From the NCBI GenBank assembly GCA_030390025.1, contig CM059447.1, positions 19,468,001 through 19,532,000 on the forward strand: a stretch of DNA of 64,000 bases, read 5' to 3'. Below the pieces are notes generated by a model, which was not told the DNA's origin, did no database searches, and saw only the letters and a list, made by a program, of their open reading frames with translations. Shown here piece after piece: positions 742 to 64,000 of the stretch. Origin of the DNA: Squalus acanthias. Taxonomy: Eukaryota. Position 1 is the first letter of the stretch. Every line of letters starts with the position of its first letter. The position numbers and the translations under genes are program-made.

Positions 742-858
742 AATAAATAAAAACAGAAAATGCTGGAAATACTCAGCAAGTCAGGCAGCATCTGTGGAGA
801 GAGAAACAAAGTTAACGTTTTAGGTCGATGACCCTTCGTCAGAACTGGGTATTTATTT
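742..858 (-). mobile_element. Penelope-like element 3' terminus, short insert with 12-bp TSD taatattttaat (730-741 / 859-870)
   Basis: Nearly identical to 62655-62752, which continues into a GIY-YIG coding fragment. Confidence 0.8.
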
Positions 859-1420: not shown

Positions 1421-2463
1421 ATGAATGTGGGTACAAAGAACTAATCACACCTTATTTATATGTCCTTGCGCATTTCCATTAAATCTATCATTTAAAAAAT
1501 AGAATTAATTTTATATCTAATAACTATATGACAAGAAGGAAGCATAGACAGTACTTTATCAGAATTGATTTCTTATAACTTTTAGCATTAATAAGTATGC
1601 TTGTATAATGCAATATGTATGAATTTTAGATGTAGAACATATTATTGGTCTGTTTATTACAAACAATATACATTTTTAGTACAATTTCTTAGAAAAATAT
1701 TTACATTAAAAGGAACTCTATAAATAAAATCATACATCCCATAACTGAGAAACAAGTCTATCATTATTAATATTACAATGAATAATGTGCTAGTGTAGTT
1801 GATACAAACACCTCAGCTCCCTCTTCTACAATAAGTCTCTTTGAAATGCAAGTCTTGAAAGGACAAAGTTCAAGCAACTTGGTTCACTTTTAAGTCTGTT
1901 TGTTTGTTCCTGCATCCAGGGCTTTGTTTCAGTTGTGAATTGAATTATGCTGAGGTTAAAATGAACCCACCAATCATTCCACAAGATTAACGGTTGTTTA
2001 CTGTTACCATGACACTGTCACTCTTATATTAGCATTTGTACTTTGTACTGCTGTCTTTGGGCACTGTTTCCAGAACCATTTAATTGGCACGTTTACTTTA
2101 TCTTCTGAATGCCAATGGGTGCGGAAATAATGAAAAATGCAGTACAAAGAAATGAGGATTTTCCATTGAAAGACAATCCATTATCACTGATAATTTAAAA
2201 TATGTAGATTATCAACGTCCTTCTGAACTACCCCAAAATAACAGTGTTAGCCAAGAACCTGTACACATGACACTATGGCTTGAGCAGTAGTAACTGCTTC
2301 TTCAAAAACTAATAAGAATACATTTCCTATCATGGACTTTGTGTTTTGCAGTCATCTTGCTATAAGGACGATATTGTTATTACTTAGCTGAATTGTTAGA
2401 TTGGAAATTGCTTTCACAAACTTCTGGGCCTCACACAAGTCCCTTCATTAACTGTGGAATAAA

Positions 2464-2790
2464 AAGAAAGACAGACTTGCATTTCTATAGCGCCTTTCAC
2501 AACCACCGGACGTCCCAAAGTGCTTTACAGCCAATGAAGTACTTTTTGAAGTGTAGTCACTGTTGTAATGTAGGAAACGCGGCAGCCAATTTGCACACAG
2601 CAAGCTCCCACAAACAACAATGTGATAATGACCAGATAATCTGTTTTAGTGATGTTGATTGAGGGATAAATATTGGCCAGGACACCGGGGATAACTCCCC
2701 TACTCTTCTTCGAAATAGTGCCATGGGATCTTTTACATCCACCTGAGAGAGCAGACGGGGCCTCGGTTTAACGTCTCACCCGAAAGATGG
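2464..2790 (-). mobile_element. Deu-domain SINE (SacSINE1-like) with L2-type tail, 5' truncated
   Basis: Deu core gtaaaagatcccatggcactatttcgaagaagag in reverse orientation; tail aggcgctatagaaatgcaagtc; multicopy in this window. Confidence 0.85.
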
Positions 2791-3103
2791 GTAGAGACAA
2801 CGTGCAGCACCACCACCAACTGGGAGAACAAAGGTCTAGCCTGCTGTTCCCACTCAGAGAGTTCCTAATTTTGGTTATATTGTTGGGAGGTCAGCAACCT
2901 GTCCCTTGGAAGGGGGAGCGGTAAGACAGGTGAAACTAGTGGTCAAAATAATCATTCCAGGCAAACTTCCTGCAAGAGCAGCACTGGCTGAGTTTTACAA
3001 GAATGTGCCTTCTCACCCTTACGGTGAGGTGTATGGTCTAATGGGAACTAAAGGAATGCTTAAAAAGAAAGTTAAAATGCTCCAACTCAAACAGAAGCCT
3101 TCA

Positions 3104-3234
3104 TCTGAGTCACACAGACCAGGAAGCTGCAGGGTCCATCCCATGTCTGTGCTGAGTTCGCAGATCTGAGGTGGGACAATGATAGGAGCACGTTATCCCT
3201 AGATTAGGACAGGTAGAAAAAATATCTCCTCGTG
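3104..3234 (+). mobile_element. AmnSINE2-like SINE, 5' half (continues at 4952)
   Basis: ctgagtcacacagaccaggaag...tctgtgctgagtt...gatct; aligns with the 5' part of the copies at 52260 and 58985-59300. Confidence 0.6.
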
Positions 3235-3344
3235 CAGGGGTTCTCAAACTTTTTGCTTCCGAGGCCCCCGTCCCGTTTTAAAAATTCCACGGATCCCCTG
3301 TAACACAACACAAGTATTTTTTCTGTATAAAAATGATTGAGTAA

Positions 3345-3470
3345 GGGGTTTTCTCCTGAGGTTGGGGAGGACAAGCGGGCTTATTGTTATACTGTGTCTG
3401 ACTAGGGAGTGTTCAATAGTTCATTTCTCCAGTCCTAATATCCCTCTCCTTAACATGCATAAAAATTCAT
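3345..3470 (+). mobile_element. LF-SINE-like 3' fragment
   Basis: Resembles the 3' ends of 1280-1415 and 12190-12335. Confidence 0.45.
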
Positions 3471-3770
3471 CAATAATATATGTATTTTTGTATTTAAAAT
3501 AAAAGATAGGAAAAATGCAAAGTTACTGTATGGGTATGAGTTACCAGCCAAGGCTGGCTACATTAATTTGTGTTCACACCATCAAGTCTGGGCATGATTA
3601 GAATGCAGAAGCAATGTGCTAACCCGCAGGACCTGGACTGCATTGTCACCCCTGCCCAGGAAGAGGGGCAGGTGGCAAATCAGGCTCTTTTGTCGGCCAT
3701 CTAGGCCCACAACAGCAAAATAATTGAACTGCCAACAGGTGTAACATTCCAGTTAACATTCCCGTTAATT

Positions 3771-4246
3771 TGTGTCAGCCAGTGACTCAGTGGGTAGCAC
3801 TCTCGCCTCTGAGTCAGAAAGTTGTTTGTTCAAGTCCCATTCCAGAGACTTGAGCACAAAAATCTAGGCCGACACTCCAGTGCAGCACTGAGAGAGTGCT
3901 GCACTGTCGGAGGATGCTACCTTTCGGATGAGAAGTTAAACCGAGACTTTGTCTGCTCTCTCAGGTGGACGTAAAAGATCCCATGGCACTATTTCGAAGA
4001 AGAGCAAGGGGGTTCTCCCCGGTGACCTGGCCAATATTTATCCTTCAATCAACATCACTAAAAAACAGATTATCAGGTCATTATCACATTGCTGTTTGTG
4101 GGAGCTTGCTGTGCGCAAATTTGCTGCCATCTTTCCTACATTACAACAGTGACTACACTTCAAGAAAGTATTTCATTGGCTGTAAAGTGCTTTGGGACGT
4201 TCGGTGGGCGTGAAAGGCGCTATATAAATGCAAGTCTTTCTTTTTT
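3771..4246 (+). mobile_element. Near full-length Deu-domain SINE (SacSINE1-like)
   Basis: tRNA-like head (gactcagtgggtagcac...gttcaagtcc), Deu core and L2-type tail gaaaggcgctatataaatgcaagtctttctttt. Confidence 0.88.
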
Positions 4247-5007
4247 TAATTCAGACTCAATCAACCAGAGATCTTACCGAGTTTGGACTGTATCCGCAAA
4301 CGAGCCTCCCCCCCAAAAAAAACATCCGCTGGTCGATTTCAGTTTATGAAACTGATGAGAATTCCCATTTGAAAAGTGTTTTTAAAGGAGCTCTATATGC
4401 AAGAGCTTGCCTGGGTGTCAGTGCTGTGTCAGTACCTCGCTCCCAACCGGTTCTCCATCTCTTCCCTCTGCTTTGCCGCTCGGAGCCTGGACGACTCATG
4501 GATTCGATGTGCTGCAACTCCACCCGGAAAAAGCCGACAGTCTCAGTCTCAGCCACCCAGAAGAACCTTGCTGTCCCGAACTTTTCGCTGCTCCTATCCT
4601 GTCAAATTTCAAATCCAAACTTTGCTCATGTCAACCATTCCCGCTTCCGACTACACTCCGCTTTCCTTTTCAAATTTTTAAGAAATCATAAGAACTTTTT
4701 TTGTTTGCTTTTCCTGCTTCCAACTCGATTTCTTCAGTTCTTAGTTGTTTTTTAAAAAATTATTTGGAGTCGGTGGGGTCAGTCACTTCCCTGCTACAGG
4801 ATACATCTCATCTTCGTGTGTTACTAATTATAAATTGCTCAGATGGGACTCCACAGGGGAAAGTATTGCTCAGAGCTTGTTTTTGGGAGGACCCCTTGAA
4901 ACCCCCTCGCACGCCCCTGGGGGGCCGCGGACCCCTGGTTAAGAATCCCTGACCTAGAGCTCCTACTTCTGATTGCTATACGGTGACCTCTACTGGAAAT
5001 CCTTATG

Positions 5008-5204
5008 ATGTGGAGATGCCGGTGTTGGACTGGGGCGGACAAATGTGAGAAGTCGCACAACACCAGGTTATAGTCCAACAGTTTTATTTGAAATCACAAG
5101 CTTTCGGAGCTGCTGCTCCTTCGTCAGGTGAAATCTTCACCTGACGAAGGAGCAGTGCTCCGAAAGCTTGTGATTTCAAATAAAACTGTTGGACTATAAC
5201 CTGG
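5008..5204. mobile_element. Penelope-like fold-back insert (arms about 5063-5132 and 5136-5204), 13-bp TSD ggaaat(c/g)cttatg
   Basis: Inverted repeat read directly; same family as 59510-59747; TSD at 4995-5007 and 5205-5217. Confidence 0.8.
5137..5173 (+). ncRNA. Minimal hammerhead ribozyme motif (second copy on the minus strand at 5094-5131)
   Basis: tcac CTGACGA a GGAGC agt GCTCC GAAA GCTT gtga: conserved core, stem II, palindromic stem III (AAGCTT), stem I tcac/gtga. Confidence 0.7.
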
Positions 5205-5639
5205 GGAAATGCTTATGTGTGACAGCAGATGAAGACATGAGGTTGAAGCCCTTCATTATCACATAGCCTGTCAGTGCTCACTGTCAAAACTCGCATCTAA
5301 ATTTTACTAAATATCTGGCATCCTCTTCATTGACACCTTCTATGTAAATATTTCCATTGGGAATTCCAATGTTAAAATGTCAACATTAATCTTTTACTTC
5401 CCGGTAACCATTACCTGCCACCCCACCAAGTGGTAACTCCATTGGGCATTTCAAGGCTCAATGAGAATACTGACCTGTCACTAATATCCATCATGCCACT
5501 AAGTGGTACTGTAATTTTTTTCCCCCCACAATCATTGAAAATGCTTTTTAAAATCATCTGCCATTTATTCCTCAATAACTGAACTTTCTATTGTCCAAAA
5601 TATACTTTTAAACAAAATTAAAAAGGCATATTTCTCAAT

Positions 5640-20600: not shown

Positions 20601-23600
20601 TAAAATAGCCTGCCACAGCTTGTCCAATCATGGGAGATCAATAGTTAAAATGAGAGAGAGAATACACATAATTCAACAAAATCCATACTTGAGCTGAAAG
20701 TTTAGAGGAAGAATTAAGACAGAAAGGGCAATTAAATGGGCAGTGTGCATTTCCTTGATGGTCAAGAGAATGATCAATTAATAGAACATAACCAAACTCC
20801 TGATTTCAGTACACCAAAGATTTAAATATCGGTCCAGTATTAACAGTCAAACTGCAGGTAGGAATCATGAAGGTACGATTTCAGTTGCACGTTGTGGAAG
20901 CTTTATTTGGCCATGGGGAAAGGTTTAAAAATAAATATGCATCTACTGAATATTGCAAGAGCAATGGGATTATTGTTACATTTTATCGTAACATTCTTAG
21001 ACCTGATCTCAGTTAATCTTTTTTTGTAGTTCTAATCTGAATGGAATCAAATAATTAACATGTATATCTGACAACCTGCCCCTTTAGGAACTAGCTATTT
21101 AGTTTTTGCCATTCCTGACAAACAATTCATAATATAAGAACACCTAATACAATGAAAAGGTCAACCAATGGCATTGTTTTTCTTAATCTAGCCATAAGGC
21201 TTCAAATATTTATCAAATATTTTCGATAACTGATGGTCACCAGAGAGGAAGGATAGAAAACCAAAGGAGTAATGTAACAGGGATCGAATAGTGTGCTGAA
21301 AGTATCAGCTAAAAGCTTCAACAGCTCTTTCCCATTGATCTGTTGGTTACTTTCAGCCAGTTTCGCCTCCTGGTCACGATCCAGAGGACCCATATTGGAA
21401 GCTAACCTTTCTTCCAAGTAATGGCATACGCAGGGGAGATAAGTTTGACCATCACCACCTTGGCTCACAAAAGAATGGCAACTTGAGAATGACAATAGAG
21501 AGCTGCCACAACCCATGAAACTACACCTCAATATGAGCAGTCACTACCTGGGGGGTGGGGGGAAATCGAAGATTGCTGGAACAAATAAAAAACCATAAAA
21601 AAAAGGCATCATTAAGACTCCAAATAGATTTGCATCAAGTTTTACTCAACTCAGGATGTGGGTGTCACTGGCAAGGCCAGCATTTATCGCCCATCCCTAG
21701 TTGCCCTGCACAACTGAGTGACTTGCTAGGCTACTTCAAAGGGTAGTTAAGAGTCAACTGCGCTGCTGCGAGACTGGCATCACATATAGGCCAGACTAGG
21801 TAAGGACGGCAGGTTCCCTTCTCGAAAAGACATTCGTGAACCAGTTGGGTTTTTACGACAATCTGACAGCTGCATGGTCACTTTTACTGATACCAACATT
21901 TTATTTCTCGTTTTTGCAGGAAGTTGGCTAAAACCTGGTTTAAAACCCCCAAAATCATTAAAAACATTCTCTACATTGCATCAAATTTAGGAAATACACC
22001 CATGCGGAGTTTAATGTTTTGTACTGATTATACCTGTGATGTTGACATTCGTGATGTGTCCTGACGTCCGGTTAAATCTGTCGAGGAAACATTAACAGGA
22101 GCGCCACGATGTAACCTCATGCTCACTTTCCGCTCCCGTTCCATGCCAGAGACAGGGCGTGGAGACGTATTAGCTGAAGAATAAATATGAAAGTCAGGTT
22201 AAACCAGCCCCACCGCACAATCATGGAAAAATATCCAATGAGTAATTTGAATATTCATTTTGTTTAGTGACTGTGTTAAAGCGTGTCACCACCAAGAGCC
22301 ACGTTTATTATGCGGAAGTGTTTATGGTAGTGAACCAGGGAGGTTTACAGGTAAGGAGAAAGCTTTGGTTTCAAAATTAATTTCCAGCCCTGCTGTCCAG
22401 CTGTGGATTAAACTGCATTCATAACCATTTTGAAAACTTCCCATTTTCAAAATGCTCCACATATGCACCCATGCTTTCACAAGAAACAATATGTTAAACA
22501 TTTCCATTCCTACCATAAAGATATTCAAGTTTTTACACAGATCACTCCTGAATTATGGGACTGGATACATACATGGCTGACCCCAGGTTGCAAATGGTGA
22601 ACAAAGGCAAAACTTTGCAGATTAAGCTGCACCATCTTGGCAATGGATGACTTTCTTTTTAAGCCTCTAATTTTACACTGGAACCAAATTTTAAACTATG
22701 AAGCAGTGTACCTACCATTAACAGTCAAGAATGCAGTGGTGATGATACATCGTAATGCAATTACTTACTTTTAAAAAATATATACTAGAATTGGATTTAA
22801 ACTGATTTATCAAATTAAACCCATAAATAATATATGGTCATTTACTTTGTGAACTTACTGAACCATGGCCCTAATCATTTACCATAAATTTAAAATTTGT
22901 TTCTTGTGAAAAGATGGGTGCATATGTGGAGCATTTTGAAAATGGGAAGTTTTCAAAATGGCTATTAATACAGTTTAATACACAACTGGACAATGAATAA
23001 TGTAAAACCCTCTTCACAATTTAATCTGAACGTATAATTTTAAAAATGGAGCCAAAAGTTGCAATTTCTTAACAATGTCCACTGTAGCAAGCCCCCATGG
23101 TAGGGCTATGAATTAATTCCATCAACAGGAGTTCCCATTTTCAGTCACAGCTGAGTGGTGACCAGTTGCTTTTTGGTAGAGTTGTAAGCGGCTGTTACTA
23201 GTGGCTGCTTGGACAGCACAAGACAGGCCCAAAAACAGATCCCCTGCTCGCCCTTTTGAAACCAAGGATAAGAACTTCAGGTTTTTAAAAAAAATGTTTC
23301 TTAAGCAATTTTCTCCTCCTCTAAAATGGTTAACTCTTTTCCAGTGTATGGCCCCAGAGACACCCTCCTGTACTTAATCCAGGTGGTCATCACTCACGTG
23401 TGAACCTTGACAGTAAGTATTGGTGGGCGGTTTAACCACAGTGGGTATTACAGTGAAGCCCCATCTTGTTCTCGCTCAACATCCACGCATGCACTTTTCC
23501 AACAGGGGCTCCCCCAATTACCATTAAATCTCCTGCAGTACTTTTTATAAAACCTAAACTCACCACTCCACCAAATTACTCAACAAGGCCCACAGCTCTA

Positions 23601-32600: not shown

Positions 32601-35600
32601 ATCATGATGAGAAAGCTTAGCGGCTGAATACCAAGCAGAACCAGTGGCACTTTGCAGCAATTAAATAATTTTATTAATTCATTACCACAATCTGTGATGC
32701 AAGCCAACAGTCCACACCCATCAACTTCTCTTTGAAGATGATGTGATGTAAACCAATGGCCTTAGAAGTTCTGTAGAATAAAATGGACTGGGTCTGGTGT
32801 TGGCTTACAGTGCCACCTTCTGTCCAACAAAACACTGCAACAGCAAAGGAAATGGTGGCCACATTTTCTGCAGGAAATACAGTAGCTAGAAAGAAAATTT
32901 GCATAATGTTGCAACACTCTTTCCACAAAACCATAAACAAGTTAACAATGCCCAGGGAAGCAGATAATTACACTAAATGTTTTGAAAACTCCAGCTAGTT
33001 TAATTTTGGACCACAGCTGGATGACGACAAAAAATTCTTAAAATGGTGAATCTGCCTGGCCTTTTGCTCACCACATGGTAAATTTACAGGGTTCAACCTA
33101 CAAATTTAGGAGCAAGATCAAATAGCTTGTTTAATAGAGAATCAGAACATCTAAACTCCCACTGGATAAAATAATAAAATTAAAAACCTTTTGTGCAGAG
33201 AAGCAAGTGATCAGGGTACCATGGAATTAAAATAAAATAAGTACCTCCCTAGTTTGCGATCCTGCCAATTGTATACAAGGGCAATTTCAACAACTAGCAG
33301 GAAAACAGGCGAGACTTGTATTGTAAATTTGACATTGCGTATATGGACCCAGTAGAAATTGAGCAAATCTGGTTTTTGAAAGCGGATATGAAAAACTTAA
33401 ATTTTAATCAGAAGGCAAATGCAACTTTTATTGAAACCTTCCGTAGAAAAAGCCATCACCATTCTTTAAGAAATTAAAATGAAAAAGCCTCAATTGTCAT
33501 TTTTTAAACACGACCATGAACACTCCTCACATTTTCCAGAGACACTTTTTTAAAGCTGCTTTTATACTGCACTAAGACCTGTGCTGGTGGTGTCAACTTC
33601 TGACATCCAGGTCTCGTACACTTGGCTGCAACCAGAAAGTGAACTTGAAGAAAGAGTTGAAACGATCCGGTAAATGGTCTTACACAGTATAAAAGCAGTT
33701 TAAGATACTGAAATAATGAGTGGGAGCTGGATCATTGAAGTTAAAAATCAATACCCGGTTGGCTCAACTTCTTCAGAGGGAACCACTCCCCATGAAAAGG
33801 AAAATACAGTCATACCCATTTATCTGCAACTTGCTTAATTGCAATTTCCATTTTAAAACAACCATTTCTAATGCCTAGTTTTGTTATTTTAAACCTATAC
33901 TTCCAATTGTGAAAAGTTTATTTTATTAAACTTGAATTTATTACAATACCCACAATGTGTGTATGTGCAACATTTTATAAATTATATTTATATTATCCAA
34001 GAATAACTGGCAGCTACAACAAATCTGCCACTTTTCCCAAGTCACACCTCAGAACTCATTCGATTCTCACCCAAATGGACACTTCATTTCGATTTTTTTT
34101 TAATGGATTTCTTGCATGTTTGTTATTTGAAGAGCCATGCCCAACAATAGCAGATGGAGCTGACAATATAAGGTTCCCAAGGTTTGTGGCTACAGATATT
34201 GTTTTTCATTATATTTGGCCAGTCCATGACCTAAAAGGATAGTAATTCAAATCAATCCCATACTGTACCAAAGAATGAACATTCACAACCTGTTCAAACA
34301 CAGCAGAGGATGAAACCATTTACTGATCTGGGGTTGGGCCCTACAGCAAGGACCCAATGAGGGAAAAACAGCCTAAATTCTGACAGTGGAAACATAAAAC
34401 CTCCACTGTCAGTGGAAGTGTTGCACTGCTTCTTTACCATTGTAGGCTATTAGGCCATTATATTAAATTAGAAAAAAGGAAGGGGAAGAAAAAAAAACCC
34501 ATTAATCAGGGTTTCCTTCCTAATCCTGACCATTACATTCTGCCGAAAGCACACGGGTGGCTATTGGGTGAGAATCAGGTTCAGCATGACTGCCCCACTC
34601 GAATGGCCTGATGACATTCACTTAAATAATGGCCATTGAAAAAAGTACGAGAGAGAATCTGGCTTCCAATGAATCATACCCTATCAAGAAGTCATGTCTA
34701 GGAGAGGAGTGGAAGAGAGAAATTGGTGATAAATACTTGAAAGAAAGACTTACATTTATATAGCGCCTTTCACGACCACCGGACGTCTCAAAACTCTTTA
34801 CAGCCAATGAAGTACTTTTGAAGTGTAATCACTGTTGTAATGTGGGAAACGCAGCAGCCAATTTACGCACAGCAAGCTCCCACAGACAGCAATGTGATAA
34901 TGACCAGATAATCTGTTTTGTTATGTTGATTGACGGATAACTATTGGCCAGGACACAGGGATAACTCCCCAGCTCTTCTTTGAAACAGAAATACTGATGG
35001 AAGCAGTGGAGAGACAAGTATTGAATGAGGAAACACATACTTGGTATGAAATCCATCTTCAAAAATAGCCACTATACAAAGCCAGATTAGCTACCATAGG
35101 TATGCACTTCCTCCTATATGAAAGCAGTTAGATTCCATATGGAAATAGGGAGATTAATGTCAAGGAGAAAACAAATGTCACTAACTCTTCCACTCCCAAA
35201 AACAGAAAGAACGATCACAAACTGCCTCGAGGGAGTGCTGCACTGTCGGAGGTGCCACCTTGTGGATGAGTTGTTAAAGAGTCTGCTCTCTCAGGGGAAC
35301 ATAAAAGATCTCATGGCACTATTTCACAGAAGAGTAGGGGAGTTATCCCCAGTGTCCTGACCAATATTTATCCCTCAAACAACATAAAAACAGATTATCT
35401 GATCATTATCACATTGCTGTTTGTGGGAGCTTGCTGTGCGTAAATTGGCTGCTGCGTTTCCCACATTACAACAGTGATTACACTTCAAAAGTACTTCATT
35501 GGCTGTAAAGCGCATCGAGACGCCCGGTGGTCATGAAAGGCGCTATATAAATGCAAGTTTTTCTTTTTAATGAGTATTGTGAGCGTGACAAAAGGTAAGG

Positions 35601-47600: not shown

Positions 47601-49416
47601 AGAGCTTGCAGCAGTGGCACTGCTGTCTTCAGAGAAGCTTTGGAAAACTACTACACCCGAGGCTGTTCTTCAAGGCAATACTACCACAAATGCATTTATA
47701 TTACAGCAGTGTCACTGAAGTCAAGGCTGGCATCAGGAACAGCATCCTGTGGGAGGAGATGCTTTCTGCATCAACAAGTTTCTCAACTTATTTTAGAATA
47801 TGTAAAATCTATTACAGATTTTTTTCTCCAAAGGTCGATATAAATTCTGCCAATTTTGAAATCTGAAAAACATTCAGTACTTCGAGTCAACACTCATTGT
47901 AGAATAGCAACTGACAAAACACTGATCAAATAATTTTGTTACTGTTGAAAATAGCCAACTGTTGTTCTATTATGCATGCTGTCAGAGGTTAAACTCTGGT
48001 TCCTCTACTGATGAGATCCAAAACAATTGTTTCAATTATCACTAATGGCTTATTGGATATCAGTTAGTGCAGTTCTGTTGGCGAGCTGCAGCTGATCGGT
48101 TCAACACAAAGGTCAGGCTCTCCCATACTGCATCTACACCGAGTTACAGTTACTATTTTAAACAACATTAAAATAAAACAAACTACAATTAGATGGTATC
48201 TGTCTTTCTTGTTCTCATATTTAACTTTCACTATGCTCTATTCCGGTGCTACAGCACAGCATATGCACTCAGAGAGGTCAATCAGATCCAAGCAGAAATC
48301 AGACATTAAACCTAACAACAAAAGTTTTATCAGTATTTGTTTAATACTCAGAGTTACTGTTTAGTTCACCTCAACAAATATCTGGACAAGGGGTTAACTC
48401 CATGTCTAACGCTGATGACACTGAAAAGGTGAGATTTTGACAATGAACAATGTACACTATGGAAAAGCTAGGCTAATTTTGGGTATTCCAAGATGACACT
48501 GGCAGGCCTGCATGCTAAACCCCCAGCATAATAAACTCTGTTACAAAACTGCTCGGACTCGTGTCCAGGTAACTGCCACCTAGATGTTCAATATTTACAT
48601 TATTCATAACAGGTTTTTAGATCAATAACATTCTTTGACCTAAACCAAACTGCAACCATTCTCACATGTATAAAAACTGATATTCTTGGCTGATGTTGGA
48701 TGTTATGGTCCTCACCAGGAAACAAATTTGATTATTCAGTCCTCCCATAATCCACTTCTTTCACACAAACAAAACAATTACTTTGAAACACTCCTTTAGA
48801 AAACAGCAATATTACAGACCTCAACTGCTGACAATTTCTGCTTTACATTCATATTACAGGGACATACAAAAGATTATTTCAACCTCTTCCTCTCATAAAT
48901 TCCCACAGCTAGTATCCCCAGGAGTATTACTTCATAGATCAGCTGGGGTTTTTTTTTTAAAAGCAGCTATGTTTTGTTACACTCCCTTTAGTGATTTCTT
49001 TGTTGCTCAGCTGAAATATATGTCTGATATTCTATCCTTTGACTGATGGATTATTGGAACAGTCCATCTGTTGTGGTGAAATGATCCCTGGATATTATCG
49101 AATAGTCAGCTCCTTCTATATGTGATCCCTGGGATTCATAATCTTCCCAGGAGCAGATTTGTGAATATGGAGATTGACTCTGTGAATGACAGTTTTTCTT
49201 TCTTGACTATTACCATGTCCTTTCCCCTCTGGGCCAGTGACACGGGACTAGATATTACACACACTGTTTTTAGCCGTGTTATTATTAGGAGTGCTGTTCT
49301 CGCTCTTGTCTTCCTCCCAATATCCACTCTCAGTTCTTACCCAGGTAAATGTCTCCGAAGGACCCGCTGCCGATTTTCCTGCCGAGCCGGTACCTGTTTC
49401 CCACTCTCAGTTCCAT
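11568..49416 (-). CDS. CSNK1D: Casein kinase I delta, whole coding span (delta1 = 9 exons, 1245 nt, 414 aa; delta2 = exons 1-8 plus cassette exon, 408 aa)
   Basis: Exons were read by hand and splice in frame with GT-AG at every junction. The protein runs [26 protein letters not shown]...HRDVKPDN...IIDFGLAK...SRRDDLE. The C-tail (GASRAADD...[13 protein letters not shown]...[25 protein letters not shown]...TSRMSTSQ) is diagnostic of delta rather than epsilon. Confidence 0.98.
11884..12338 (+). mobile_element. LF-SINE-like element, near full length, in the last CSNK1D intron (antisense to the gene)
   Basis: Starts GGGGACTGGATAGAGCAGTGG, then gtgaatccagcccagact and ttcttagtgggca; ends tctccaggatcaatagcgctcatcttaacaagcacgaaaat. 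Confidence 0.65.
15625..15657 (-). CDS. CSNK1D: CSNK1D delta2 cassette exon, coding part [10 protein letters not shown] (whole exon 15595-15657, 63 nt)
   Basis: Acceptor cttttcccccacctcag, donor TGG|gtgagt. Peptide matches the mammalian delta2 tail NSIPFEHHGK*, and the post-stop GAAGGCAGCACTG resembles the human exon. Confidence 0.93.
   Translation of the reverse strand, partial: NSLPFEHHGM
16468..17403 (+). mobile_element. L2 LINE 3' fragment (degenerate RT C-terminus plus tail)
   Basis: [29 protein letters not shown] (degenerate YADD region); L2 tail ggcactatataaatgcaacttgttgttg. Confidence 0.9.
18397..18464. repeat. Tandem duplication, 2 x 34 bp
   Basis: agcagactcgactcttactgaagcacagaccact / agcagattcgactcttactgaagcacagatcacc. 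Confidence 0.9.
21648..21905 (-). mobile_element. SINE-like repeat with a CR1-family 3' tail
   Basis: Reverse complement ends gcaactagggatgggcgataaatgctggccttgccagtgacacccacatcc, a tail I recognise as common in elasmobranch retroposons. Confidence 0.6.
22034..22173 (-). CDS. CSNK1D: CSNK1D exon 8 (140 nt): [47 protein letters not shown]
   Basis: Acceptor ttattcttcag, phase-0 donor CAG|gtataa; near-identical to the mammalian CK1delta tail. Confidence 0.97.
22394..22992. mobile_element. MITE-like element with about 96-bp inverted repeats (22394-22489 and 22897-22992)
   Basis: Arms about 90% complementary, including an exact ccattttgaaaacttcccattttcaaaatgctccacatatgcacccat block; related fragment at about 36955-36981. 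Confidence 0.7.
23335..23512 (-). mobile_element. AmnSINE2-like SINE, 3' part
   Basis: Reverse complement aligns with 112-290 and 52390-52545. Confidence 0.5.
24008..24213 (-). mobile_element. CR1 LINE 3' end
   Basis: tacagcacagaaacaggccatttggcccaac is the reverse complement of the CR1 tail; similar to 52600-52790. Confidence 0.8.
24400..25110 (-). mobile_element. Old L2 LINE RT fragment
   Basis: ORF 24403..24858 contains [19 protein letters not shown], a degenerate L2 motif (LLDLSAAFDTVDH). Confidence 0.7.
25505..25530 (+). repeat. G26 homopolymer
   Basis: Read directly. Confidence 0.9.
26140..26233 (+). mobile_element. CR1 3' tail fragment
   Basis: gatcagccatgatctcattaaatggcagagcaggctcgaggggccaaatggcctactcctgctcc; matches 59840-59920. 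Confidence 0.8.
26456..26624 (-). CDS. CSNK1D: CSNK1D exon 7 (169 nt): [56 protein letters not shown]
   Basis: Acceptor tgatcatttcag, donor CTG|gtaaaa; one codon shorter than the human exon as recalled. Confidence 0.97.
27450..27827 (+). mobile_element. Degenerate CR1 3' end
   Basis: ttttcactggaacagaaaaggttgagag...acagagggttattagagcatggaattc...ggctgaatggccttcttctgtgctgtaa...attctatga. Confidence 0.75.
27832..28123 (-). mobile_element. Degenerate Deu-domain SINE
   Basis: ctgctcttctttcagtagtgccaagggatcttt (Deu core) and head-region similarity. Confidence 0.65.
28316..28464 (-). CDS. CSNK1D: CSNK1D exon 6 (149 nt): [50 protein letters not shown]
   Basis: Acceptor ttccccacag, donor TTT|gtacgt; overlaps ORF 28289..28546. 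Confidence 0.98.
29430..29600 (-). CDS. CSNK1D: CSNK1D exon 5 (171 nt): [57 protein letters not shown]
   Basis: Acceptor tctcttccag, donor CGT|gtacgt; SRRDD and LPWQGLKA motifs; overlaps ORF 29323..29652. Confidence 0.97.
29890..30070 (-). mobile_element. Degenerate Deu-domain SINE, 3' part
   Basis: tttatatacagtgccttatc...ctcaaaatacttcat...cccacaaacagcagtgag resembles the SINE tail. Confidence 0.55.
30210..30438 (-). CDS. CSNK1D: CSNK1D exon 4 (229 nt): [22 protein letters not shown]...[12 protein letters not shown]...[16 protein letters not shown]
   Basis: Acceptor ttttgcatttag, donor TAG|gtaggc; HRD and DFG motifs and the CK1-specific SIN motif; overlaps ORF 30043..30390. Confidence 0.99.
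31723..31871 (-). CDS. CSNK1D: CSNK1D exon 3 (149 nt): [50 protein letters not shown]
   Basis: Acceptor tttcttgtgtag, donor ATG|gtagga; CK1 signature [10 protein letters not shown]. Confidence 0.98.
32288..32556 (-). mobile_element. CR1 3' tail fused to a SINE-like fragment with an internal 2 x 47-bp tandem (32436-32529)
   Basis: (acatagaa)2 terminal repeat and ggagcaggagtaggccattcggccc; tandem acatatccca(c/t)cctatccctgtaacccca read directly. Confidence 0.75.
34475..34640 (+). mobile_element. AmnSINE2-like fragment
   Basis: atcagggtttccttcctaatcc...ttgggtgagaatcagg...gaatggcctgatgacattcac; similar to the other copies. Confidence 0.45.
34740..34985 (-). mobile_element. Deu-domain SINE, 3' part
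   Basis: High identity to 2464-2715. Confidence 0.85.
35229..35568 (+). mobile_element. Deu-domain SINE, 5' truncated
   Basis: High identity to 3890-4246. Confidence 0.85.
35756..35866 (-). CDS. CSNK1D: CSNK1D exon 2 (111 nt): [36 protein letters not shown]
   Basis: Acceptor ttgttttctcacag, donor GAG|gtaagg; contains the VAIK catalytic lysine. Confidence 0.98.
37270..38090 (+). mobile_element. CR1-like LINE RT fragment, degenerate
   Basis: [17 protein letters not shown] is a degenerate GVPQGS motif; downstream [19 protein letters not shown]...[17 protein letters not shown] is typical of a LINE RT C-terminus. Confidence 0.85.
38095..38310 (+). mobile_element. LF-SINE-like 3' part
   Basis: gcactaattggcaatt...gagagctttgctct...caccttgatgagcataaaa matches 1200-1415. 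Confidence 0.55.
40950..41605 (+). mobile_element. Degenerate CR1 ORF2 3' fragment
   Basis: aaatttgctgatgacatcaaattggg (KFADD); gttaggttacagttggagtactct; [14 protein letters not shown]. Confidence 0.85.
49341..49416 (-). CDS. CSNK1D: CSNK1D coding exon 1 (76 nt): [26 protein letters not shown]
   Basis: Strong Kozak context ccaaccATGG, glycine-rich loop GSGSFG, donor CTGG|gtaaga. Confidence 0.98.
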
Positions 49417-59300: not shown

Positions 59301-59509
59301 CCTTACAATTCTTAGAGGCTTGACAGGGTAGATGCTGAGAGGCTGTTTCCCCTCGCTGGAGAGTCAAGAACTAGAGGTTATAGTCTCAGGATAAAGGGCC
59401 GGTCATTTAGGACAGAGTTAAGGAGAAATTTCTTCTCTCAGAGGTTTGTGAATCTTTGCAATTCTCTAACCCAAAGGGCTGTGGAGGCTCAGTCATTGAG
59501 TATATTCAA

Positions 59510-59747
59510 AAATGAGAAGTCGCACAACACCAGGTTATAGTCCAACAGATTTATTTAAAATTACAAGCTTTCGGAGCTATCCTGCCCCTTCTTCAGGTAA
59601 AGTTACACTGAGTGTAACTTTACCTGAAGAAGGGGCAGGATAGCTCCGAAAGCTTGTAATTTTAAATAAATCTGTTGGACTATAACCTGGTGTTGTGCGA
59701 CTTCTCATTTTTGTCCACCCCAGTCCAACGCCGGCATCTCCGCATCA
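59510..59747. mobile_element. Penelope-like fold-back insert; perfect 103-bp arms (59507-59609 and 59611-59713); 13-bp TSD tgagtatattcaa
   Basis: Palindrome checked base by base; TSD at 59497-59509 and 59748-59760. Confidence 0.85.
59620..59659 (+). ncRNA. Minimal hammerhead ribozyme motif (identical copy on the minus strand at 59561-59600)
   Basis: ttac CTGAAGA a GGGGC aggata GCTCC GAAA GCTT gtaa. Confidence 0.7.
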
Positions 59748-60339
59748 TGAGTATATTCAAGGCAGAGATCGATGGATTTTTGGGCACTAAGGGAATCAAG
59801 GGATGTGGGGATAGGGCGGGAAAGTGGAGATGAGGTAGAAGATCAGCCATGATCTTACTGAATGGCGGAGCAGGCTCGAGGAGCTGTATGGCCTCCTCCT
59901 GCTCCTATTTCTTATGTTCTCAGGACAGTTTATCAGATAGTGTCACTGTAGATTTTAAATTGTTGCTTTTTGCACTAGTTTACATTTAAGTGATGATAAA
60001 CGATTACTTATAAAACTTTTAACAAATGATAGTTTTGCACTATTTAGCAAAATTACACAATCACATTGTTTGCATAGGATTTTTGTCTGGAGAGGCAATT
60101 TATTTTCTGACAATGCACAGAAAGAAACACGGAAAACATTTCACAGGAAAACACAGGAACTTTTTGCTAAACAGCAGATGAGGATCTGGGAGCACTCGAT
60201 TGTATTTTCTTTCCTTCCTATTCTCCCTCTTCCCCTATGTTCCGATTTGATATTTCCCTTTCATTTAACAATTAAATCAATATATTTTTTTGCGTATTTT
60301 CCTTTTTTTAAATTGGATTCTTAAGAATGTATTTTCGAA

Positions 60340-61104: not shown

Positions 61105-61555
61105 AAAGAAAGAAAGACTTGTGTATATATATAGCGCCTTTCACGACCACCGACATCCCAAAGTGCTTTACGGCCAATGAAGTTATTTTGAAGAGTGTTG
61201 TAATGTAGGAAACACAGCAGCCAATTTGCACACAGCAAGGTCCCACTAACAGCAATGTGATGATGACCAGATCATCTGTTTTAGGGATGAATATTGGCCA
61301 GGACACCGGGGATAACTCCCCTGCTCTTCTTCAAATAGTGCCATGGGATCTTTTACATCCACCTGAGAGAGCAGACGGGGCCTCAGTTTAACGTCTCATC
61401 CGAAAGACGGTACCTCCGACAGTGCAGCACTCCCTCAGCACTGCACTGGAGTGTTAACCTAGATTTTTGTGGTTAATTCTCTGGAGTGGGACTTGAACCC
61501 ACAACCTTCCAGACTCAGAAGGTAATGGTACTACCAACTGAGCCACAGCTGACAC
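61105..61555 (-). mobile_element. Full-length Deu-domain SINE
   Basis: Reverse complement of the 3771-4246 family, including the tRNA-like head (gtggctcagttggtagt...gggttcaagtccc). Confidence 0.88.
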
Positions 61556-61561
61556 ACATAA

Positions 61562-62312
61562 AAGACTTAATGGCACAGTTTTAAAGAGTGTGCAGGGACA
61601 GAGGGACCTGGGAGTTAATGTGCATAGGTCCCTGAAGGTGGCAGGACATATTGAGAGAGTGCTTAGCAAAGCATATGGGATCTTGGGCTTCATAAATCGA
61701 GGTATTGAGTACAAAAGTAGAGAAGTTATGCTGAACCTTTATAAAGCGCTGGTTAGGCCACAACTGGAGTATTGCGTCCAGTTCGGGTCACCACACTTTA
61801 GGAAGGATGTGAAGGCCCTTGAGAGGGTGCAGAGTAGATTTGCCAGAATGGTTCTGGGGATGGGGAATCTTGGCTACAAGGACAGGTTGGAGAAGCTGGA
61901 TTTGTTTTCATTAGAGCAAAGGAAGTTGAGGGGTGATTTGATAGAGGTGTACAAGATTATGACGGGTTTGGATAGGCTAGACGGGGAAAGGCTGTTCCCA
62001 CTAGTTGATGGTACAAGGACTAGGGGACACAGATTTAAGGTTTTGGACAAGAGATACGGGGTGGGGGGGATGTGAGGAAAAACTTTTTTACACAGCGAGT
62101 GGTGAGGACCTGGAACTCGCTGCCGACGGAAGTGGTGGAAGCGGAGACACTCAATGTTTTCAAGGGGACACTGGATAGGCACTTGAGGGAAATAAACTTG
62201 CAAGGCTACGGGGATAGAGCGGGGGAATGGGACTGACTGGATTGCTCTGCAGAGAGCTGGCACGGACTCGCTGGGCTGAATGGCCTCCTTCTGAGCCGTA
62301 TGACTCTATGAC
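61562..62312 (+). mobile_element. CR1 LINE 3' fragment, relatively young
   Basis: ORF 61590..62075 QRDLGVNVH...LYKALVRPQLEYCVQF...LERVQ...RGDLIEVYKIM...TRGHRFK; CR1 tail. Confidence 0.93.
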
Positions 62313-62650
62313 ACTATGACAGGCCTGTCCTGCCTGCTGCACTTCATTATTTGGTAGCAGTAAAACATTGGGGGTGAGGTTCCTCGCAATCTAAGGCAGT
62401 TACACCTTTGTCATACCATTATTGCACTGAAAAAGATCGCGGAAAATGGTGCTCAGCGCAGTACTATATTGCATTAAACGCAAATTTCCTCAATCTTATT
62501 AACAGTGCAAATCTTACGCCACTCAAAATCCCTCAGGGCTCATTTGCATAAGCTGCACTTTTGAAGTAAACTGAAGTTTCCTGGGTTTACACTGCTACAT
62601 TGGGGTAACTTTACACCCTAAAGAAACCGATCTAACAGCTCCTTTTAGCA

Positions 62651-63190
62651 ATAAGAACAGAAAATGCTGGAAACACTCAGCAGGTCAGGCAGCATCTGTG
62701 GAGAGAGAAACAGAGTTAACGTTTCAGGTCGATGACCTTTCGTCAGAACTGGAAAAAGTTAGAGATGTAACAGGTTTTAAGCAAGTGTAGGGTCAGGGAA
62801 AGGCGGGAGGGGAGGAAAGAACAAAAGGGAAGGTCTGTGATAGGGTGGACGGCAGGAGAGATTAAATGACAAAAGGTATAATAGTACAAAACAAAAGGAG
62901 ATGGTAACGGGACAAGCAAAGAAACAGAAGATGTGTTTAGAAGAGATGTAAATGGGAATGACGGAATCATCAACCGCTGTCATGTGAAAAAATAAGGGCA
63001 GAGGTTATGGTCTGAAATTGTTGAATTCGATGTTGAGTCCAGAGGGCTGTAAAGTGCCTAATCGAAAGATGAGGTGCTGTTCCTCGAGCTTACGTTGAGC
63101 TTCGTTGGAACAGTGTTAGAGGCCGAGGACGGTGAGGTCAGAGTGGGAGTGGAGCGGAGAATTAAAGTGACAGGCGACCGGAAGCTTGGG
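62651..63190 (-). mobile_element. Penelope-like element 3' fragment (GIY-YIG endonuclease C-terminus plus terminal region)
   Basis: Minus strand translates PVACHFNSPLHSHSDLTVLGL*HCSNEAQRKLEEQHLIFRLGTLQPSGLNIEF, the HF...E...I..L.TL.P.GLN pattern of Penelope endonucleases. Confidence 0.88.
62714..62750 (-). ncRNA. Minimal hammerhead ribozyme motif in the Penelope terminal region
   Basis: agtt CTGACGA a AGGTC atc GACCT GAAA CGTT aact. Confidence 0.7.
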
Positions 63191-63800
63191 ATAGAATTAT
63201 AGAATGGCTACAGCACAGAAGGAGACTATTTGGCCCGTCGAGTCCATGTCGGCTCTCTGCAAGAGCACCTCAGCTAGTCCCACTCCCCCGCCCTTTCCCC
63301 GTAGCCCTGCAAATTTTTTTCCTTCAGGTACTTATCTAATTCCCTTTTGAAAGCCACAATTGAATCGGCCTCCACCACCCTTTCAGGCGGTGAATTCAGA
63401 TCCTAACCACTCGCTGCGTAAAAGAGTTTTTCCTCATGTCACCTTTGGTTCTTCTGCCAATCACCTTAAATCTGTGTACTCTGGTTCTCGACCCTTCCGC
63501 TAGTGGGAACAGTTTCTCTCTATCTACTCTGTCTAGACCCCTCATGATTTTGAACACCTCTACCAAATCTCCTCTCAACCTTCTCTGCTCTAAGGAGAAC
63601 AACCCCAGCTTCTCTAGTCTATCCATGTAACTGAAGTCTCTCATCCCTGGAACCATTCTTGTAAATCTTTTCTGCACCCTCTCTAAGGCCTTCACATCCT
63701 TCCTAAAGTGCAGTGCCCAGAATTGGACACAATACTCCAGTTGAGACCAAACCAATGTTTTATAAAGGTTCATCATAACTTCCTTGCTTTTGTACTCTAT
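63191..63800 (-). mobile_element. CR1 LINE 3' fragment
   Basis: ORF 63396..63776 LYKTLVWSQLEYCVQFW...LERVQKRFTRM...RGDLVEVFKIM. Confidence 0.93.
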
Positions 63801-64000
63801 GGGCTGGATTTTGAATGACCCGTGGAGTCGGGTTTGGAGTTGGTGGGGGGGTTAAAGTTGCAGATTCGGGGGTCCCGACCCCATCCCGACTCCAACCCGC
63901 CTCCATGCCAGTTTCTCTGGCGGCGGGTACCCGACCTGGTCTGAGACCCGACTCCCTGAGGCGGGAAGGGATTAGTGACAATTAACTGCCTGTTAACAGA
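63801..64000. mobile_element. GC-rich element starting GGGCTGGATTTT, apparently inserted into CR1 (cut by the window edge)
   Basis: Abrupt switch from CR1 coding sequence to CpG-rich sequence with internal short inverted repeats. Confidence 0.45.

Follow-up and report, generated by a model that had tools for sequence, protein, structure and literature searches.

We analysed a window of 64,000 nucleotides from Squalus acanthias in which a short palindromic insert interrupts a LINE fragment, and which also holds a gene that is presumably CSNK1D/E-like, judging from its peptides. The features at this locus are as follows, with positions counted along the window.

28348-49416, minus strand: coding exons of a gene that presumably resembles casein kinase 1 delta/epsilon, the first coding exon lying near 49416
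59316-59920, plus strand: host LINE fragment, end approximate, its frame continuous over the TSD
59497-59509, plus strand: left TSD copy, 13 bp, its last 3 nt common to the end of the inverted arm (microhomology)
59507-59609, minus strand: inverted PLE terminal repeat (pLTR) copy, without the tail
59610, no strand: palindrome centre, 1 nt, 13 nt upstream of either hammerhead core
59611-59713, plus strand: direct pLTR copy
59714-59747, plus strand: one-sided tail, 34 nt, A or C at 24/34 positions, ending 92 nt past the predicted cut site
59748-59760, plus strand: right TSD copy, 13 bp

We found that the two arms (59507-59609 and 59611-59713) are complementary at 103/103 positions around the single centre base G59610, which bears out the original prediction of a 207-bp palindrome with mismatch-free 103-bp arms and a 1-nt centre; the longest other perfect arms in the window measure 20 nt (in a related copy at 4995-5217) and then 12 nt. 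The insert consists of this palindrome and a 34-nt unpaired, one-sided tail (59714-59747), of which the original prediction makes no mention, and the predicted 13-bp TSD does flank it (59497-59509 = 59748-59760, 13/13 identical), at a site of 77% AT vs. 59% across the window and with a junction overlap of 3 nt on the left and 1-2 nt on the right. The host is a LINE that we take, from its motifs, to be of the CR1 type. Its fragment shares 62-71% identity with nine proteins (PF00078 annotated in one of the nine), and its reading frame reaches the left TSD and picks up in register at the right TSD, as expected of a real insertion and not of a read artefact. The claim that the insert sits in a CR1 tail held for the LINE host, but the site lies in the C-terminal coding end of the LINE and not in its non-coding tail alone. 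A motif scan of the window for an empty CR1 target site found none. Formation of the inversion at insertion was supported, while arm-to-arm conversion, offered earlier as the alternative, is not required: 0/103 differences (59507-59713) only bounds arm divergence to <2.9%, and the TSD is likewise perfect.

Each arm carries a minimal hammerhead motif, laid out as follows.

59561-59600, minus strand: minimal type I hammerhead carried by the inverted arm, the mirror image, with C3 at 59596
59620-59659, plus strand: minimal type I hammerhead of the direct arm, predicted cut after 59655
59620-59623/59656-59659, plus strand: stem I, with the core at 59624-59630 and an extra A at 59631
59632-59636/59643-59647, plus strand: stem II, with GAAA at 59648-59651; stem III is palindromic and loopless

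The cores start at 59624 (plus) and, in the mirror, at 59596 (minus), and the CUU at 59653-59655 ends where the cleavage site had been placed. The 'twin' motifs of the original prediction are indeed two, but not two on one RNA, since each strand carries one. Our descriptor search returned five minimal type I hammerhead motifs in the window (one per strand at the palindrome, one per strand at 4995-5217 and one at 62746) vs. a mean of 0.01 per dinucleotide shuffle (200 shuffles, two of them with one motif). No hammerhead family was matched in Rfam searches of the window (E≤1) and of 59590-59760 (E≤10), so the hammerhead call rests on our own descriptor and the consensus of PMC4209133. A miRNA reading was rejected, as Rfam returned only chance snoRNA and miRNA-hairpin matches, far under their gathering scores. 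The core CUGANGA ... GAAA ... UH is intact in four of the five aligned motifs, the copy at 810-846 carrying G12A. All four hallmarks by which PMC4209133 characterises PLE minimal hammerheads are present (an extra base at 9/10.1, G10.1-C11.1, a palindromic 15.2-16.2 and a 4-bp helix I), and this match upholds the predicted Penelope-type assignment. The likeness to the metazoan PLE minimal hammerheads of Cervera and De la Pena (2014) takes in the core, these bases and helix I, the loopless palindromic helix III and the opposite-strand pairing, such pairs 100-700 bp apart having already been noted in S. mansoni (PMC4209133); helix II, however, measures 7-8 bp in S. mansoni and 5 bp here. We found no shark example of a PLE minimal hammerhead in the accessible text of PMC4209133. 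The activity that the original prediction called probable is no more than putative: such motifs are described as inactive monomers that cleave weakly as dimers (PMC4209133), and as cleaving only together with the element protein (PMC11167929). Two side observations concern the stems: in family B (below) stem II is closed by A-U (G-U in the short copy) and not by the usual G10.1-C11.1 (region 62737-62738/62724-62725, minus strand), and 59614-59623 (plus), just upstream of stem I, is complementary to the insert's own stem I variant, possibly because the source element had once folded back and kept a trace of it, though this complementarity may be chance.

Three further insertions in the window carry the motif, one related to the insert itself (family A) and two of a second family (family B).

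4995-5217, minus strand: related family-A insertion, laid out like 59497-59760, with TSD 4995-5007/5205-5217 (12/13)
Parts of 4995-5217: tailed arm to 5132 on the minus strand, 3-nt centre, inverted arm 5136-5204, 58-nt unpaired end
62650-63190, minus strand: family-B copy of ~540 nt, with a GIY-YIG-protein C-terminus (63190-63008), 3' UTR and hammerhead (62750-62714)
746-848, minus strand: short family-B copy, pLTR only, core broken at 821, where G12 is replaced by A; its 5' end lies 6 nt ahead of C3

Both family-A copies (2/2) show the order TSD, inverted arm, direct arm, tail, TSD, with an inverted 5'-truncated pLTR beside a direct one, and the family ends 92-93 nt past its own cut site. 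At 4995-5217 the 3' end is the same as in the 59497-59760 copy, the inverted arm ends 35 nt past the cut site, the TSD is 62% AT and the arms differ in loop II; the earlier statement that both arms carry identical variants is thus right for 59507-59713 and wrong for this relative. Family-A copies are non-coding: no protein homologue was found for the pLTR frame, and tblastn of 152 PLE-related proteins against both copies gave nothing at E≤0.001. Family B is not, and its member at 62714, which had been counted among non-coding inserts of 200-240 nt, turned out to be ~540 nt long and to include the C-terminus of a GIY-YIG protein, read as a 61-codon frame with one stop (63190-63008) upstream of the hammerhead. 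Pfam gave no match in this 61-aa fragment, which matches 449 proteins at E≤0.001. Among 12 relatives picked for length from 150 listed matches, GIY-YIG was found in 9 (above the curated cut-off in 2/12), RVT_1 in 6 and both in 5, in the order RT then EN, and another homologue set gave a weak GIY-YIG match in 1/7. Judged from these similarities, 62650-63190 is a 5'-truncated autonomous PLE, with no convincing TSD found around it, and because family B carries a PLE protein end it places this type of motif in a PLE context within the window. RT sequence of either family was not found in the window. The short copy at 746-848, not named in the original prediction, escaped our hammerhead descriptor and has a candidate 12-bp, AT-only TSD (730-741/859-870), its G12-to-A break being as expected of a decaying copy.

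Other repeats and annotations were seen beside these copies. The PLE C-terminal peptide of family B also closes several unrelated gene models, among them P0018, a predicted 7TM receptor; in these models it is probably a gene-prediction read-in of PLE fragments. LINE 3' fragments at 61542-62200 (plus) and 63396-63851 (minus) face each other round the family-B copy and form a 351-nt inverted pair at 77%. A repeat family with inverted arms of 80-180 nt (87-94%) and spacers of 400-1600 nt, found at 2463-4247, 34740-35566, 61196-61509 and 22394-22992, is MITE- or DNA-transposon-like. For the insert itself a MITE or DNA transposon was rejected: its repeats stand head to head without a spacer, the tail makes it asymmetric and the arms of the related copy end unequally.

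Compared with 4995-5217, the hammerhead of the insert changes C-G to U-A in stem I, A-U to G-U in stem II and C to A at N7, and has a longer loop II, so that the compensatory stem I change, the stem II wobble and the core-base and loop differences are as first described. The two family-A copies differ by 12 substitutions in 124 ungapped columns, none of them (0/14) in the core, stem III and position-17 columns. When substitutions were placed at random in 200,000 trials, an intact motif together with at least one compensatory pair arose in 0.55% (a post hoc figure from two copies), an intact motif alone in 6.9% and a compensatory pair alone in 4.7%. Across five related rows from the two families, in a count that is descriptive only, helices I and II were paired in 45/45 cells with two-sided change at 7/9 pairs, vs. 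10-41% paired in slid controls. Because both arms of the insert have the same variants, the stem changes predate the insertion; as far as sequence goes, they point to selection in the source lineage and not on the 59497-59760 copy. The idea that these are selected ribozymes therefore stands in part, with structure-preserving changes present (P ~0.006, two copies) and selection on this copy itself falling away.

In folding, the hammerhead stem had a pair probability of 0.76-0.92 in a single arm and of 0.0 in the whole insert on both strands, because the full transcript makes one 103-bp hairpin (-188.5 and -193.5 kcal/mol). As the two motifs lie on opposite strands, the same-strand dimer that such ribozymes are thought to require (PMC6765202) is impossible. 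By this folding model, a read-through transcript of the 59497-59760 insert should not self-cleave, and the motif could fold solely in an RNA that starts at the palindrome centre. A dimer-active fold is stereochemically drawable (-15.7 vs. -22.1 kcal/mol for the dimer minimum), and when two monomers were cofolded unconstrained, the complete active dimer did not come out. Single-arm folding z-scores were ordinary (0.64, -0.37, 0.62 and -0.87; family B -1.83), and fold stability is therefore no evidence. A tail stem-loop like that of Anolis Poseidon was also considered and, with a folding z of 0.62, found unsupported. All four PLE-type inserts run through the cut site, and the template was therefore uncleaved at that point.

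We further found that three of the four PLE-type inserts end 5, 6 or 13 nt before hammerhead C3 (59611; 5132/5136; 848). Under exponential truncation with a mean of 100-800 nt, an assumed model applied post hoc to n=4, three of four ends falling within 9 nt has a P of 0.028-0.0005. This clustering suggests a fixed RNA 5' end or RT stop, or a non-autonomous family, and it argues against purely random truncation, the outcome that the original prediction had set against an independent family.

The predicted cut site also opens a stretch with splice-like signals.

59656-59723, plus strand: putative intron-like stretch, 68 nt, with a GTRA donor-like motif at the predicted cut site, a branch-like motif, a pyrimidine tract and a CAG acceptor-like end

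In family A the donor-like GTRA lies 45 nt after the palindrome centre; in D. virilis the intron is 75 bp long and begins 46 bp after the start (PMC2377424). Acceptor-like sites accompany the hammerheads of both families (59723, plus; 5030, 62696, 792 and 62749, minus), and by a simple pyrimidine/branch/YAG rule they rank in the top 0.1-0.9% of 8249 AG, the kinase gene's five acceptors falling at 0.1-3.1%. The intron 3' end abuts helix I in D. virilis, whereas in family A it is the cut site that coincides with a donor-like motif. For family B we observed that the downstream acceptor-like site is followed at once by ATG, that its branch-like motif overlaps the cut site and that a second acceptor-like site abuts stem I, as in D. 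virilis. Within the intron-like stretch, both family-A copies hold AATAAA (59665-59670, plus), which could be the polyadenylation signal of a downstream pLTR.

The layout of the insert has close parallels among EN+ Penelope-like retroelements (PLEs). Standard PLE features include a 5'-truncated copy in inverted orientation and a tail that extends one end by 30-40 bp (PMC8557442); in A. vaga the pLTRs are inverted, the tail measures 31 bp and the TSDs 8-10 bp, and inverted junctions show palindromes (PMC3846280), and D. virilis Penelope has inverted terminal repeats and a 34-bp repeat (PMC2377424). In Anolis Poseidon the element protein favours AT-rich DNA, where it cuts both strands of the target and extends both; its RT starts inside the RNA, 111-118 nt into the ORF, with the hammerhead cut at +26, and thus 85-92 nt after the cut site, the tail sits between two RT starts, and hammerhead cleavage is dispensable (PMC11167929). 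With D. virilis Penelope, A. vaga Pen2a and Anolis Poseidon PAc our insert shares the inverted 5'-truncated pLTR, the tail (34 nt here), the TSD, the AT-rich target, the hammerhead in the pLTR, an RT start ~90 nt past the cut site and an uncleaved template. It differs from them in consisting of a pLTR alone, with no ORF and no protein link found for family A, and in arms that meet at a 1-nt centre; in published figures inverted pLTRs stand beside longer elements. In addition, the TSD is 8-10 bp in Pen2a vs. 13 bp here, and the ORF of PAc begins inside the hammerhead, where the frames of family A are closed. Our literature search, which covered few subscription journals and repeat databases, found no pLTR-only perfect palindrome, and within the same scope it found nothing on shark PLE hammerheads or on twin priming in PLEs. 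On each feature testable in the window the insert belongs, by its sequence, with EN+ PLE insertions, family A being known without its parent ORF. It is an example of a known element and no new kind of catalytic RNA.

We are therefore largely confident in reading 59497-59760 as a pLTR-only insertion of an EN+ PLE, whose source element, by this analysis, was most likely of the Penelope/Poseidon type. In the sequence of steps that we propose, an RT-GIY-YIG protein would have bound uncleaved, unspliced element RNA and cut an AT-rich site with the strands 13 nt apart, as the Anolis enzyme suggests (PMC11167929). RT would have been primed at the tail end, 92 nt past the hammerhead cut site, where the junction is observed, and would have run ~137 nt before halting just upstream of the hammerhead. 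The second, inverted arm would have been made in the one integration event. It may have arisen when the other target strand primed from a second start, placed 34 nt inward of the first, and the cDNA ends were joined, to which we give not quite an even chance, or by fold-back copying of the first cDNA, a serious possibility that we rate somewhat lower; from the window alone the two cannot be told apart. In the twin priming that produces 5' inversions of L1, the RNA may be primed by the ends of both target strands, junctions show short microhomology, and the two cDNAs cover different segments, whereas both arms of 59507-59713 cover one segment, giving a palindrome. A third proposed route is self-priming on an antisense template (PMC3846280). 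Repair left the 13-bp TSD and the one-sided tail that we observe. The hammerhead would have travelled as cargo. Its shape would have been maintained by selection acting on the source elements, in which the ribozyme most likely cleaves element RNA either as a dimer or aided by the element protein; the 59497-59760 copy itself is most likely a young, neutral passenger. Some observations go against this explanation: neither family-A copy yielded a coding link to a PLE protein, the 13-bp TSD exceeds the 8-10 bp of PMC3846280, and the unpaired end of the related copy (58 nt) lies beyond the 30-40 norm and implies another second start site, so that the 34 vs. 58 nt of the two copies are evidence against a fixed one.

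A dedicated non-autonomous, SINE-like PLE derivative, with its own pLTR RNA of ~130-140 nt and a fixed 5' end, mobilised in trans, would share this integration chemistry and differ in the source of the RNA. Both family-A copies (2/2) are pLTR-only with a common 3' end and stops 5 and 13 nt before C3, the short family-B copy brings the insert ends within 9 nt of one another to 3/4, neither homologue search nor tblastn linked family A to an ORF, pLTRs suffice in trans (PMC3846280), and Chlamydomonas has non-autonomous PLEs (PMC8557442). Yet family B, which derives from an autonomous element, also gives a pLTR-only copy with a like stop (746-848), so a fixed stop needs no separate family; a like short product would also be expected if RT began internally, close to the 5' end of an ordinary PLE transcript, as can be argued from PMC11167929, and with only two copies to go by we consider a dedicated family unlikely. 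Much less probable is a non-LTR retrozyme as published, in which tandem hammerheads free a monomer that is circularised and reverse-transcribed by rolling circle; the original prediction had suggested a retrozyme-like family. The insert resembles metazoan non-LTR retrozymes (Cervera and De la Pena 2020; Li, Clavereau and Pollet 2026) in being short, non-coding, of comparable size, pLTR-related and equipped with a type I hammerhead, and retrozymes have been reported to be pLTR-derived and to be present in the one chondrichthyan sampled, 1/9 tested dimers having cleaved (bioRxiv preprint 10.64898/2026.07.22.740005). The definition, however, requires tandem same-strand units (PMC7229834), and head-to-tail repeats occur in 0/4 window inserts; no insert end lies at a cut site (ends fall 35-93 nt past it), the motif is minimal and not canonical type I, and the two motifs of 59507-59713 face apart on opposite strands, their stems sequestered in the full transcript. 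As far as the window reaches, the insert might still be a solo monomer of a tandem retrozyme family elsewhere in the genome.

The perfection of the arms invites two other accounts. It might have been maintained after insertion, by conversion or host selection, for a hairpin RNA or cruciform with a role, for example as a source of small RNA against the element or near the casein kinase 1 gene; the 103/103 arm identity, the position of the insert ~10 kb upstream of the first coding exon of the CSNK1D/E-like gene and the small-RNA responses that PLEs draw (PMC3846280) are compatible with this. We nevertheless think it very improbable, because the TSD is perfect too (13/13), so that recent insertion accounts for the arm identity, and at 4995-5217, where the TSD has a mismatch, the arms have mismatches too. 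A 1-nt centre between perfect arms is also what a fold-back chimera looks like, and assembler polishing could have erased small arm differences. PLE inversions are, moreover, known to trouble assemblies (PMC8557442). A sequencing or assembly artefact of this kind is the least probable account of all, as the mirror halts at the TSD, the LINE frame stays in register beyond it, which is evidence against a fold-back read, and the layout recurs in an independent copy whose arms are imperfect.

We return to the insertion of a PLE end and consider what its fixed stop might reflect. The insert could be a strong-stop-like PLE product, in which the transcript is neither spliced nor cleaved, RT starts internally on its 5' pLTR ~90 nt past the hammerhead and runs off where the RNA has a fixed 5' end, just upstream of the ribozyme, and priming on both cut strands gives the palindrome. 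In family A the cut site would then double as a 5' splice site, the 68-nt intron being retained. This extended reading is speculative and, taken whole, rather unlikely. The short pLTR form may also have become its own non-autonomous family. If the strong-stop reading is true, one model would serve for inverted pLTRs and their tails, and palindrome centres would map PLE transcription starts; if the cut site is a 5' splice site, a single RNA could be cleaved, spliced or used as RT template, each fate excluding the other two.

For annotation, these results mean that such palindromes are to be filed as PLE ends, and not as new ribozyme elements or assembly errors. The insert is valuable as a natural reaction product. 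PMC8557442 and PMC11167929 name the making of inverted repeats and tails by PLEs as a question still to be settled, and very short young inserts hold both junctions and the inversion point in one read. With many copies of this kind, dual priming could be distinguished from fold-back and from antisense self-priming, and they could also test the overlap of the hammerhead with a splice site.
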